Shown: positions 46,513 through 55,964 of the stretch, piece by piece | Layout of the letters: each line of letters starts with the position of its first letter | How positions within the stretch are numbered: position 1 is the first letter of the stretch | Source: a virus | Taxonomy: Duplodnaviria > Caudoviricetes | Direction: 5' to 3' (one strand) | IMG/VR virus record: IMGVR_UViG_3300044627_003892 | DNA length: 64,000 nt | Made by a program: the position numbers and the translations under genes | The notes under the pieces: model-generated | What the model was told of the DNA's origin: nothing | Seen by the model: the letters and a program-made list of their open reading frames with translations, nothing else | Databases searched by the model: none

Positions 46513-47307
46513 ATGGTTATTACAGATAGATTAAAACAAATTATTTTTAAACACCTATATAGAGAGTTAGGTGATTGTGAGATTATTCCTTATAATGGGT
46601 CTATATGGTTCATTAATAGGGATAATAAACATTGGTACTTTGAACTTGATGAGTCAGGTACTTTATGGTGGAGATACGATTTTTTTAATTCGTTTTTTCA
46701 AATATTCTCCATGAGTTCGGATGATTTTTGTCCTGTTCTATCTTCTTGGGTGGAAGAGGTCTTAAATCATAAGGTATCCACAACCCAGGATAGCCTGTGT
46801 AACGTATGTAAACTGGTGGAAGAGGTCTTAAATCATAAGGTATCCACAACCTTCATTCCACTTCCAATTACAACGGACAAGGTGGAAGATGTATTAAATC
46901 ATAAGGTATCCACAACGTGCGATGTTAAAGTTCGTGTTCCTTGGAAGGTGGAAGATGTATTAAGTCATAATGTTAAGGTGTCTACAACTACCATTCTCAA
47001 ATACCCCGAGCATTCATTGGTGGAAAAGGTCTTAAATCATAAGGTATCCACAACCGATTCACTTGATTACGTTGGAAGAATTGAGGTAGAAGAGGTATTA
47101 AATCATAGGGTATCTAGAACCTGCCAAACAAGCGTTTATTGTGATAGGACGGTGGAAGAGGTCTTAAATCATAAGGTATCCACAACGCAGAATTTGAATT
47201 ATGTCGGCCAAGGACTGGTGGAAGATGTATTAAATCATAAGGTATCTACAACGGAATCGTATTTTGGACCCTTCACAAGAGGGGTGGAAGAGGTATTAAA
47301 TCAATAA
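46513..47307 (+). CDS. Array-bearing protein A: conserved ~80-aa N-domain plus 8 units of VEEVLNHKVSTT + 10 variable aa
   Basis: Uninterrupted ORF through a repeat-spacer array; N-domain paralogous to 54010, 54632 and 55230. Confidence 0.85.
   Translation: MVITDRLKQIIFKHLYRELGDCEIIPYNGSIWFINRDNKHWYFELDESGTLWWRYDFFNSFFQIFSMSSDDFCPVLSSWVEEVLNHKVSTTQDSLCNVCKLVEEVLNHKVSTTFIPLPITTDKVEDVLNHKVSTTCDVKVRVPWKVEDVLSHNVKVSTTTILKYPEHSLVEKVLNHKVSTTDSLDYVGRIEVEEVLNHRVSRTCQTSVYCDRTVEEVLNHKVSTTQNLNYVGQGLVEDVLNHKVSTTESYFGPFTRGVEEVLNQ
46749..47303 (+). CRISPR. CRISPR-like repeat-spacer array inside a CDS (8 full repeats + 1 partial, 8 spacers of 30 nt)
   Basis: Repeats start at 46749, 46815, 46881, 46947 (6-nt insertion), 47019, 47085, 47151, 47217, 47283; all spacers unique; no cas genes nearby. 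Confidence 0.6.
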
Positions 47308-47763
47308 TTAGTTATTCTCTAAAGTACCTGTATAGAAATCTAATACCATATCAAAAATATCATCTAATACATCTTTTGGTAGTTCTTCATAAGACATATA
47401 ACTTTCATCTAAAATTTGTGAGTATTTATATCCACCATAATGAAACACTGTAACATCTTCTTTATTTATCATTTCTATTTGTGAAAGTTCACCGTCTTCA
47501 TCCTTGAGGACTATTGGGTTTTCATTCATATCCATTAGTACAATATATTCATCATCGGTTGTTTCTACTACTTCCTTAATAATCTTAATCTTATTGTTTG
47601 TTGTAAGGAACTCATCACCTAACACATTTATAAGGTATTCTATACCACCGAACATTTCTCCTGTCTTTAGTAACCCCGCCTGACTTGCGATAGTTAATAA
47701 CTTCATCTGTTTTACGGTGTATTCTTCCCTTAATATTCTTTTTATGTTTTGTTGTAGGTTCAT
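47308..47763 (-). CDS. Hypothetical protein with MNLQQNIKRILREE leader
   Basis: 151 aa. Confidence 0.7.
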   Translation of the reverse strand: MNLQQNIKRILREEYTVKQMKLLTIASQAGLLKTGEMFGGIEYLINVLGDEFLTTNNKIKIIKEVVETTDDEYIVLMDMNENPIVLKDEDGELSQIEMINKEDVTVFHYGGYKYSQILDESYMSYEELPKDVLDDIFDMVLDFYTGTLENN

Positions 47764-47795
47764 AATATTATAAATATAATTATATTTATTATCAT

Positions 47796-48125
47796 ATGAA
47801 ATATCTTATAACAGAATCACAATTAGATAAAGTAATCTTTAGATATTTGGATATTAAGAACTTTATTCAGATTAAAAGAGGAAACACAATATACTTTGTT
47901 AATTCGGAAGATGATAAATATGCCCAAATCAGATATGATAGAAACGATGGTTGGTGTTATATACGCCATGGATTAATTTACGAAATTTCTTCTTTCTTTT
48001 CTTTGGACATATATGATTCTAAGGAAGTTATCGGTAGATGGGTTGAAAATACTCTACAAATGAGGGTTACTTATACCCGTTTGGTCTTTCACGATGTGAA
48101 CAATTTGTTTAAAATACCTAACTAA
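47796..48125 (+). CDS. Short paralogue of the array-bearing family, MKYLITESQL leader
   Basis: FFSL...WVENTLQMRVTYT + variable + FKIPN. Confidence 0.75.
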   Translation: MKYLITESQLDKVIFRYLDIKNFIQIKRGNTIYFVNSEDDKYAQIRYDRNDGWCYIRHGLIYEISSFFSLDIYDSKEVIGRWVENTLQMRVTYTRLVFHDVNNLFKIPN

Positions 48126-54004: not shown

Positions 54005-54009
54005 TGCTT

Positions 54010-54648
54010 ATGGTTACAGATAAGCTAAAACAACTCATATTCAAACACCTATACAAAGAGTTAGGTAATGTGGAGATAATCCCGTATAAAGACTCTGTAT
54101 GGTTCATTGATAGGGAAAATTGTTATTGGTATTTTCAGTTGTCTAAAGATGGATGTTTATTTTGGAGATACTCATTCTTCCCATCGTTTTTCAGTATTTT
54201 CTCTTTGGAGCAAAGTGAGTTTGAACCAATAATATCTTCTTGGGTGGAAGAGGTATTAAATCATAAGGTATCCACGACAGGTAATAAGCTCGGTTACTTC
54301 TCGCGAAAGGTGGAAGAGGTATTAAATCATAAGGTATCCACAACAAAAATGTTTGTAATTGACGAATTTCCTCTGGTGGAAGAGGTATTAAATCATAAGG
54401 TATCCACAACTGAAGAGAAAACTACTGTAACAGCAAAGTGGGTGGAAGAGGTCTTAAATCATAAGGTATCCGAAACTTTTGAAGTAGACGCCGCCCAAAA
54501 AAGAAAGGTAAAAAAAGTATTAGATAGTAGGGTATCAACAACTAAAAATAATTCCTTATTTTCCGAAAGGTCAGTGGAAGAAGTATTAAATAGTGCTTGG
54601 GTGAAAAAGGCATTAAACAATAAAAAAGAAAATGAAAGTAACGGATAG
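54010..54648 (+). CDS. Array-bearing protein B (5 units)
   Basis: Same N-domain; VEEVLNHKVSTT repeats. Confidence 0.85.
   Translation: MVTDKLKQLIFKHLYKELGNVEIIPYKDSVWFIDRENCYWYFQLSKDGCLFWRYSFFPSFFSIFSLEQSEFEPIISSWVEEVLNHKVSTTGNKLGYFSRKVEEVLNHKVSTTKMFVIDEFPLVEEVLNHKVSTTEEKTTVTAKWVEEVLNHKVSETFEVDAAQKRKVKKVLDSRVSTTKNNSLFSERSVEEVLNSAWVKKALNNKKENESNG
54243..54591 (+). CRISPR. CRISPR-like array in CDS (5 full repeats + 1 partial, 5 spacers of 30 nt)
   Basis: Repeats at 54243, 54309, 54375, 54441, 54507, 54573; degeneracy increases toward the 3' end. Confidence 0.6.
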
Positions 54649-55243
54649 ATTAAGACAACTCATATTCAAACAACTATACAAAGAATTAGGTAATGTGGAA
54701 ATTATCCCTACCCAATACAGTTATTGGTTTATTAATAGAGAAGAAAAATACTGGTATTTCCAACTAACTGAAAGTGGATGTTTATATTGGAGATATGATT
54801 ATTTCAAATCTTTCTTTTCTTTTTTCTCTTTGGAGTCCAAAGATTTTGAACCAATTATTTCATCTTGGGTGGAAGAGGTATTGAATAGTAAAGTATCCAC
54901 AACAATTGTGCAGATGCATCATAAGAAGGATTCGGTGGAAGAGGTATTGAATAGTAAGGTATCCACAACTCAGCAATTCAGTTTCACTTCGAATGATATG
55001 ATGGAAGAGGTATTGAATAGTAAGGTATCCACAACTGCAGGAAAGGCAGGAACTGTAACCATTGCGGTGGAACAGGTATTGAATCGTAAGGTATCCAAAA
55101 CAGTCCGTGACGTAGGTGAAGGAAACTTTTTGGTGGAAGATATATTGAATCGTAAGGTATCCAAAACGGAAGAATTCATCTCAAGAAGAGCGGAATCGGT
55201 ATATGAGGCATTAAACAACAAAAAAGAAAATGAAAGTAACTGA
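54632..55243 (+). CDS. Array-bearing protein C (5 units)
   Basis: VEEVLN(S/R)KVS(T/K)T repeats. Confidence 0.85.
   Translation: MKVTDRLRQLIFKQLYKELGNVEIIPTQYSYWFINREEKYWYFQLTESGCLYWRYDYFKSFFSFFSLESKDFEPIISSWVEEVLNSKVSTTIVQMHHKKDSVEEVLNSKVSTTQQFSFTSNDMMEEVLNSKVSTTAGKAGTVTIAVEQVLNRKVSKTVRDVGEGNFLVEDILNRKVSKTEEFISRRAESVYEALNNKKENESN
54868..55215 (+). CRISPR. CRISPR-like array in CDS (5 full repeats + 1 partial, 5 spacers of 30 nt)
   Basis: Repeats at 54868, 54934, 55000, 55066, 55132, 55198; gene-specific variant GGTGGAAGAGGTATTGAATAGTAAGGTATCCACAAC. Confidence 0.6.
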
Positions 55244-55964
55244 TAGATTAAAACAGGTTGTATTCAAACAACTATACAAAGAATTAGGTAATGTGGAGAT
55301 AATCCCATATAAAGATTCTATATGGTTAATTGACCGAGAAAAGGAGCATTGGTATTTTGAATTTGAAAAGAGTGGTCGTTTGTGGTGGAGATATTATTTC
55401 TTTAATAGTTTTTTTACTATTTTCTCATTGGAACCCAAAGATTTTGAACCAATACTCTCTTCTTGGGTGGAAGAGGTATTAAATCATAAGGTGCCCACAA
55501 CTGAATTGTGTGCGGAGAAAAAGTATGATGAGGTGGAAGAGGTATTAAATCATAAGGTATCTACAACTGTTTACATGGGCATGAAGGCAAGTGTGAAGAT
55601 GGAAGAGGTATTAAATCATAAGGTATCCACAACGCAAAACGATATCGGTAAAGAAGGTTTCTTGGTGGAAGATGTATTAAATCATAAGGTATCTACAACA
55701 CAAACGACGAATGCGGAACAAGTGGTTTTGGTGGAAAAGGCATTAAATCATAAGGTGTCTACAATATCATTCAATACACCGCCGTTTCCGAATATGGTGG
55801 AGAAGGTATTAAATCATAAGGTGTCTAAAACCTATTGTAGACCCACTATTGTTCCCAGTGAGGTGAAAGAAGTCCTAAATCATAAGGTAACTACAACACA
55901 CACATCACGTACATGTAATTCACCAGTGGTGGAAGAGGTATTAAATGAAAACCCCACTGAGTAG
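55230..55964 (+). CDS. Array-bearing protein D (7 units)
   Basis: Same N-domain; VEEVLNHKVSTT repeats. Confidence 0.85.
   Translation: MKVTDRLKQVVFKQLYKELGNVEIIPYKDSIWLIDREKEHWYFEFEKSGRLWWRYYFFNSFFTIFSLEPKDFEPILSSWVEEVLNHKVPTTELCAEKKYDEVEEVLNHKVSTTVYMGMKASVKMEEVLNHKVSTTQNDIGKEGFLVEDVLNHKVSTTQTTNAEQVVLVEKALNHKVSTISFNTPPFPNMVEKVLNHKVSKTYCRPTIVPSEVKEVLNHKVTTTHTSRTCNSPVVEEVLNENPTE
55466..55946 (+). CRISPR. CRISPR-like array in CDS (7 full repeats + 1 partial, 7 spacers of 30 nt)
   Basis: Repeats at 55466, 55532, 55598, 55664, 55730, 55796, 55862, 55928. Confidence 0.6.

Follow-up and report, generated by a model that had tools for sequence, protein, structure and literature searches.

The subject of this analysis is a group of four genes in a 64,000-nucleotide (nt) stretch of viral DNA, hereafter the window (IMG/VR virus record IMGVR_UViG_3300044627_003892; Duplodnaviria, Caudoviricetes), whose 3' parts have the build of CRISPR arrays and appear to be kept as protein-coding sequence. 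The window has approximately 31% guanine plus cytosine (G+C) and its closest relative among the records searched is a 240-kb IMG/VR phage contig; the source is a lake jumbo phage, the lineage of which is uncultured and widespread in lakes. Sequencing runs dated 2020 to 2024 contain this phage. The explanation that we favor, and consider fairly probable, is that these are phage-borne arrays similar to those of type VI-B, most probably fed by host Cas1-Cas2 in trans and maintained as coding sequence with an output at the protein level. The proposal of the first-pass annotation of the window, i.e. that the phage has exapted CRISPR arrays as coding sequence, is supported by our results.

As had been described, four open reading frames (ORFs) on the plus strand have a paralogous N-terminal part (N-domain) of approximately 78 amino acids (aa; 61-63% identity), which continues into an array of 36-nt repeats with the consensus GGTGGAAGAGGTATTAAATCATAAGGTATCCACAAC. 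Each 66-nt unit translates to VEEVLNHKVSTT plus 10 variable residues. The earlier count of 25 spacers (8+5+5+7) was also confirmed, each being exactly 30 nt long and no two being alike, while the repeats measure 36 nt in all but one variant: 24 copies have at most nine mismatches, one carries an in-frame 6-nt insertion (46947-46988, 42 nt), and each array closes with a terminal partial repeat. The array genes and the spacer most relevant to their origin are:

46513-47307, plus strand: array gene 1, with the N-domain at 46513-46748 and array 1 at 46749-47307 (8 spacers); the 42-nt repeat lies at 46947-46988 and the terminal partial repeat holds the stop codon; orthologues are present in 8 related records.

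46785-46814, plus strand: first spacer of array 1, present only in this phage; 30/30 identical to rplM of a Flavobacteriales bacterium, antisense to the gene.

54010-54648, plus strand: array gene 2, with an ATG start and a GTG at 54004; repeats from 54243, 5 spacers; the stop overlaps the start of gene 3.

54632-55243, plus strand: array gene 3; repeats from 54868, 5 spacers; repeat variant with NSK in place of NHK; the stop overlaps the start of gene 4.

55230-55964, plus strand: array gene 4; repeats from 55466, 7 spacers; residues 1-87 are predicted to fold with confidence, the remainder not.

Genes 2, 3, and 4 overlap stop-to-start, and arrays 1 and 4 have no coupled downstream gene. The repeat starts one base ahead of the codon boundary. 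Of its 171 copies, 170 open with G, a base that completes the last variable codon as its third position; the unit is therefore set by the DNA and runs out of step with the codons.

Selection for an open frame was assessed in the orthologous arrays of eight related phage contigs. The 51 distinct spacers, counted over nine related phage records, contain no stop in the coding frame, while each of the other five frames contains 11-51 stops. Random 30-mers of the source bacterium introduced below are stop-free in the coding frame in 64.7% of cases, which gives the observed 51 of 51 a probability of about 2e-10. The earlier claim that the lack of in-frame stops exceeds chance, for which roughly 1e-6 had been estimated, is thereby placed on firmer ground. 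In addition, 12 of the 22 point differences between strains in shared spacers are synonymous (12 versus 10 non-synonymous; neutral share 0.24, p 0.002; small numbers), and 13 of the 22 fall at codon position 3. On sequence evidence, the open frame is strongly selected and retained cassettes change mostly synonymously.

The origin of the spacers was traced in metagenomes, which were scanned with one 22-mer from the first spacer of array 1 (46785-46814). Two contigs without an array matched this spacer, at 30/30 and 29/30 positions, and in the former the identity ends exactly at both spacer borders. The site in rplM neighbors rpsI, rpsB, tsf, queA, and truB, and the contig, which has 41-42% G+C, carries along its 94 kb ftsZ, tRNA synthetases and many proteins with type IX secretion system (T9SS) tails. 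The named QueA proteins closest to that of the contig belong to metagenome-assembled genomes of Flavobacteriales; the bacterium is represented by contigs Ga0114980_10000030 and ERZ19539373 scaffold_64. No close relative of this bacterium was found among the species genomes (best QueA identity 71% in 400 Flavobacteriales), and a closer metagenomic relative exists. Two further protospacers lie on the same contig. In a 294-kb relative, the first spacer of the array agrees at 28/30 positions with an S8 peptidase gene, in the sense direction, and both mismatches are at codon position 3. A DNA search allowing seven mismatches showed that an older, common spacer matches pyruvate kinase in the antisense direction at 23/30 positions, six of the seven mismatches again being at codon position 3. 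The full-length protospacers that the first-pass annotation had suggested looking for are therefore present in a bacterial chromosome (30/30, 28/30, and 23/30). Among 118 distinct first-position cassettes, two have near-exact matches in the 94 kb, in rough agreement with the 3.7 expected if the genome is assumed to measure about 3 Mb; in a peptide search allowing at most one mismatch in nine residues, none of 283 distinct later-position cassettes matched the 94-kb contig.

The composition of the spacers points in the same direction. Their G+C content is 43% and flat over the codon positions (0.47/0.41/0.39), compared with 0.41-0.42 in the bacterium and 0.31 in the phage, and the G+C content at third codon positions (GC3) is 0.39 in spacers versus 0.17-0.26 in phage genes. 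Under a Markov model, 76% of the spacers were classified as host-like; the share was 77% among 30-mers from the host and 21% among those from the phage. The spacers are probably pieces of a Flavobacteriales chromosome, probably that of the host. No spacer match was found within the phage's own lineage (the 240-kb relative and the window), no protospacers were detected in 50,697 phage records, and none in IMG/VR for three strain-unique spacers. Matches of 21-22/30 to the bacterial contig were rejected, being as frequent as chance predicts and lacking the codon-position-3 pattern, and a 23/30 match to a TonB-type receptor gene is considered doubtful. Upstream of the three accepted protospacers, at -8 to -5, stand GTTG, GGTG, and GGTT, i.e. 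G[GT]T[GT], and the doubtful fourth site has no such motif. The presumed host contig also encodes a 1063-aa protein (L082:11792-14983, minus strand) with no Pfam or NCBIfam match, beside a gene-free stretch of ~1.1 kb; it was considered as a Cas13b candidate and rejected, and no repeat array lies beside it either.

These data leave an ordinary tandem-repeat protein, with fast-evolving loops, unequal crossing-over and a coincidental likeness to CRISPR, as an extremely improbable explanation. The repeat does encode a conserved peptide, its first copy falls within a folded domain common to paralogs, and repeats are homogenized within a gene and differ between lineages, all of which would suit such a protein. 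It is contradicted, however, by the three spacers copied from bacterial chromosomal genes, one of them with a match ending at the 30-nt borders, and further by the absence of duplicated spacers (pairs are near-identical or unrelated), by the GC3 difference and by a repeat border out of codon phase. We thus rejected this explanation, as the variable segments are mutually unrelated and have a host-like composition, and three of them were copied from bacterial genes. Cyanobactin precursor genes, with hypervariable cassettes between conserved flanks, and diversity-generating retroelements likewise confine variation to short peptide segments of a conserved gene. The array genes differ from both in that neither a reverse transcriptase or template repeat nor maturase genes were seen, and in that the source of the cassettes is captured host DNA. 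A diversity-generating retroelement was rejected since RVT_1 is missing from five related records and the spacers resemble neither one another nor the remainder of the phage genome. A multi-core precursor of ribosomally synthesized and post-translationally modified peptides was dropped because maturase genes were not observed and the cassettes have been copied from the host.

In line with the first-pass annotation, orthologous arrays in related records have not diverged by point mutation alone. Strains have gained or lost entire 66-nt units. Spacers that they share are almost identical, the remaining ones bear no relation to each other, and the units always follow in the same order. The mean number of repeat mismatches by index is 1.6, 1.4, 1.8, 3.9, 5.3, 4.9, 5.2, and 5.5, i.e. 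repeats on the N-domain side are near-perfect and later ones are decayed, and both near-exact protospacer matches belong to first-position spacers. Metagenomes contain about 930-1000 matching proteins, almost all of them singletons at 90% identity and with lengths in 22-residue steps; 159 of these proteins hold 401 distinct cassettes, and cassette richness is estimated at 1020 or more, i.e. at least that number, from the first 120 proteins. Distant lineages have N-domains that are only about 41% identical and a repeat variant of their own, homogenized at the N-proximal end. One such distant member (L058:6001-7212, 403 aa) has ~14 units; repeats one to four are clean, and those after them show decay and in-frame indels. 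By eye its first four spacers are richer in G+C than the locus average of 33%, which hints at another, G+C-richer host. In the lake sample of the window itself (run X1), a contig exits the second repeat of array 4 at 55568 into a different spacer, and thus array variants coexist in one sample. Translated by eye in the array frame, the alternative spacer reads IPVNLGMGQR, a cassette also found in protein P0075.

Such turnover could also leave nothing more than tolerated scars, an explanation that we regard as unlikely. Host adaptation machinery would mis-integrate at a repeat-like end of a phage gene and selection would remove the insertions that break the gene, with no function for RNA or protein. 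Off-target spacer integration can create new arrays. The cassettes also come close to randomly translated host DNA in amino-acid composition (r 0.87), have no positional preference within the 10-mer, and stand in a tail predicted to be disordered, as scars might. Nevertheless, there are four arrays per genome, and arrays occur in all nine relatives and in about 1000 metagenomic protein variants, distant lineages included, although recombination between repeats should erase neutral arrays, and the synonymous excess in shared spacers argues for constraint on the cassettes that are retained.

The repeat itself was compared with those of type VI-B, the hallmarks of which are a 36-nt repeat, a 30-nt spacer, GUUG/CAAC ends, a poly-U loop and a 66-nt guide with the spacer at its 5' side (10.1101/092577). 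Cas13b loci were identified with model NF038190, and the reference repeats derive from three bacterial loci. A scan of species genomes for the repeat ends led to a Chryseobacterium array beside a Cas13b gene (NF038190, 853 bits), and two more Cas13b loci were added. The three verified repeats are identical to each other at 23-26 of 36 positions. The phage repeat reaches 23/36 with one of them, in a sense orientation that equals the sense of the messenger RNA (mRNA), a score attained by only 2 of 200,000 shuffles. The likeness to Bacteroidota II-C/VI-B arrays, which had been noted from the 36/30 geometry, is in this way extended to sequence. The lengths conform to VI-B, with all 51 distinct spacers at 30 nt and repeats of 36 nt apart from one 42-nt variant. 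Predicted pairing in the phage repeat is limited to GUGGA/UCCAC, and the inner stem is missing. No leader motif is held in common with the three bacterial VI-B arrays, and Rfam returned no CRISPR repeat family for 46000-56500. The phage repeat thus appears to be a relative of the VI-B family and not a typical member, because the lengths and the CAAC end fit, whereas GGUG stands in place of GUUG and the poly-U loop is absent. In the Cas13b array of Chryseobacterium sp. IT-36CA2 (L059, G009:C22), blocks of differing repeat variants, a degenerate last repeat and spacings of 64-67 nt were observed; given these spacings, bacterial VI-B arrays are looser about the 30 nt than the phage arrays.

This resemblance gives substance to an alternative that we find possible, though rather doubtful, in which the arrays act mainly as RNA. 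Host Cas13b would cut the transcript into 66-nt guides against host messages (rplM, pyk), or the arrays would be a decoy of useless guides, and translation would only prevent Rho-type termination or decay. The sense orientation of a repeat resembling those of Cas13b fits such a role, and so do the two of three protospacers, rplM included, that are antisense to the host gene, from which guides would pair with the mRNA. There are also precedents, namely cas-less arrays of huge phages that target host genes for transcription and translation (PMC7162821) and RNA anti-CRISPRs (Racrs) that mimic repeats (PMC10651486). However, three features of VI-B repeats are absent, namely inner stem, poly-U loop and GUUG end, and one of the three spacers is sense. 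The concentration of changes in shared spacers at codon position 3 is a signature of the protein and not of the RNA level, and arrays 1 and 4, which have no coupled downstream gene, are equally stop-free. Moreover, collateral cleavage by activated Cas13b would strike phage RNA too. An additional RNA-level role with host Cas13b, as guides or decoys, is possible.

Concerning the machinery that writes the arrays, the earlier statement on cas and reverse transcriptase genes had concerned the window; in five related phage records, at most 82% complete, no match to Cas1, to RVT_1 reverse transcriptase or to Cas13b (NF038190) was obtained. Since the phage has no recognizable cas1, the most likely writer would be a host type II-C Cas1-Cas2 acting in trans. 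Flavobacterium columnare has a cas1-less VI-B array with 36-bp repeats, which receives its spacers through the II-C Cas1-Cas2 acting in trans and takes some of them from the host genome (PMC8092290). Its protospacers have the reverse-complemented II-C protospacer adjacent motif (PAM) upstream, a few bases off, with the PAM end facing the leader (PMC8092290). The flank of the phage protospacers would correspond to this layout with a different motif, which we treat as a lead from three sites. It is quite unlikely, in our view, that host DNA is captured and the cassettes are written by a phage-encoded integrase or another enzyme of unrecognized type instead of host Cas1-Cas2. Most proteins of the large phage genomes have no family match, the arrays have been conserved in lineages whose N-domains are only about 41% identical and whose repeat variants differ, and the stretch of presumed-host DNA available yielded no CRISPR-Cas locus, all of which would leave room for such an enzyme. 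Nonetheless, no candidate gene is linked to the arrays, no Cas1 or reverse transcriptase match appeared in the five records, and a known host system agrees with the arrays in repeat family, 36/30 geometry, leader-side polarity and flank motif.

According to the explanation that we favor, CRISPR-type repeat-spacer arrays would have been joined, in frame, to a phage gene at its 3' end, and 30-bp spacers would be cut from the chromosome of the infected Flavobacteriales bacterium. As the anatomy suggests, they would be inserted at the repeat adjoining the N-domain, which would act as the leader, with duplication of that repeat. A host II-C Cas1-Cas2 would presumably do this in trans, as on the VI-B arrays of F. 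columnare. Each insertion would add 22 codons, because 36 + 30 = 66 nt. Insertions bearing stops would be purged, retained cassettes would be under purifying selection, and older units would decay and be lost via recombination between repeats. The selected output would be a protein with a folded N-domain and a long, probably disordered tail, in which constant 12-mers alternate with host-derived, quasi-random 10-mers. We commit ourselves to a protein-level role for this variable tail; a guess is that it targets host factors, either by variable binding or as a decoy.

The N-domain was also examined. In the AlphaFold model of array gene 4, residues 1-87 have a predicted local distance difference test (pLDDT) score of 70-89 and the remainder scores below 50; helix 69-85 closes with WVEEVLN, for which the first repeat codes. 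Short N-domain paralogs with no array, which start with MKYLITESQL, and a candidate promoter element lie at:

47796-48125, 49961-50314, 50973-51293, 51297-51626, and 53635-53973, plus strand: array-less short N-domain paralogs, ending in a WVExxL helix like the one encoded by the first repeat of the array genes.

46501-46508, plus strand: TATATTTG, read from the sequence just 5' of the gene 1 ATG; TATCTTTG is placed likewise ahead of gene 2.

We take TATATTTG and TATCTTTG to fit the Bacteroidota -7 promoter box TAnnTTTG, i.e. to be candidate promoters. A profile comparison (hhalign) aligned the N-domain, first repeat included, with the array-less paralogs (probability 96.8%, E 2.9e-10). Repeat-like DNA in these paralogs was not above background. 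Pfam and PHROGs gave nothing above noise for the four array proteins and their neighbors, the N-domain model reached a Z of no more than 6.5 in a fold search, a value inside the noise range, and a protein atlas gave no usable match.

Several of our observations weigh against the explanation that we favor. The first repeat encodes the end of an N-domain helix common to the array-less paralogs, and for this reason a coding sequence may have been the origin of the repeat, with convergence on a CRISPR repeat; as to the order of events, the gene may have captured a CRISPR array or its tail may have turned into a site of integration. The ends of the phage repeat are GGUG...CAAC and not GUUG, the poly-U loop is lacking, and no array with the phage repeat ends was found among the species genomes, at one genome per species. 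Solid protospacers total three, all on one 94-kb contig. For the PAM that had been sought, the common G[GT]T[GT] at -8 to -5 is a tentative candidate from three protospacers, and the doubtful fourth match lacks it. Similarly, the anticipated gain of units beside the N-domain agrees with the polar repeat decay and with the first-position place of both near-exact protospacers, but strain-unique spacers are not significantly enriched at the first position (6 of 20 versus 17 of 93 elsewhere, p 0.24) and arrays also differ internally between strains. The cas and reverse transcriptase searches covered five relatives of the window phage, up to 82% complete, and no CRISPR-Cas locus was found in about 94 kb of one presumed-host contig. 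Finally, production of the array protein is something we infer from sequence. A metatranscriptome contig spans N-domain, repeat and spacer of a relative, in a library that may hold carried-over DNA.

Some further features of the window were noted. A second multi-copy family of small proteins, all on the minus strand (47308-47763, 50610-50939, 52434-53234, 56018-56638, and 56640-57068), starts with MNLQE/MNLKE..I+R+LREE, is interleaved with the MKYLITESQL family near the array genes and has no Pfam or PHROG match. A single ORF at 25535-27196 (minus strand) combines a polyphosphate kinase 2 domain (PF03976, E 1.6e-70) with a cell-wall hydrolase domain (PF07486), two domains that are not usually joined in a phage. 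The region 2254-4362 (plus strand) encodes a ClpB-like double AAA+ ATPase, and 62719-63744 (minus strand) a glutamine synthetase-like protein.

Phage arrays without cas genes are already known. Those of huge phages lack cas1/cas2 and often effectors, and some of their spacers are directed against the host chromosome (Al-Shayeb et al., 2020; PMC7162821). Like them, the arrays studied here are compact and phage-borne with no adaptation genes (a median of six repeats there, 5-9 here), and their spacers match bacteria that share the habitat, translation genes being among the matches; the huge phages were proposed to use host Cas proteins. Unlike those non-coding arrays (PMC7162821), they are in-frame, stop-free tails of protein genes, four per genome. 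The VI-B array of F. columnare (Hoikkala et al., 2021; PMC8092290) is similar in its 36-bp repeat, 30-bp spacers, absence of its own cas1 and host-genome spacers, as well as in transcription from leader to array, newest spacers at the leader and a leader-facing acquisition motif a few bases upstream of the protospacer. It differs in lying in a bacterium beside cas13b and being untranslated, while here the array is in a phage and the "leader" is a coding N-domain. Furthermore, the phage repeat is without GUUG and the poly-U loop, and its tentative motif is N4-CAAC-like, against N5-TAAA in F. columnare (PMC8092290). Viral mini-arrays, single repeat units and Racrs likewise represent host-like repeats in viruses with no cas genes (PMC11656645; PMC10651486). 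Mini-arrays, however, have one or two spacers, mostly against related viruses (PMC11656645), while no tested spacer here matches a virus, and Racrs are solitary non-coding repeats (PMC10651486), while the present arrays are coding and consist of multiple units. An array kept as a selected open reading frame was not found in the literature searched, which contains no report of a CRISPR array kept as coding sequence, nor of spacer capture writing peptide cassettes.

If the explanation that we favor is true, CRISPR adaptation can feed coding sequence, spacer capture is a source of new peptide sequence, and a virus draws on the adaptation machinery of its host in trans. The spacers would then name the host of an uncultured lineage of lake jumbo phages, and the recruitment of an integrase by cas1-less arrays of VI-B type would become testable at a junction that is also constrained by protein fold. 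That the diversity of the cassettes is useful we infer as well. A further idea, plausible yet tentative, is that CRISPR spacer acquisition serves as a protein-writing device: random 30-bp pieces of the host would become 10-residue cassettes, of which selection would keep the useful ones, resulting in an adaptive and heritable peptide repertoire, e.g. against host defense or other host proteins. Should the cassettes function as peptides, CRISPR adaptation would have been put to a new use and, if the idea is true, there would be a protein-level counterpart of CRISPR memory, run by a virus.

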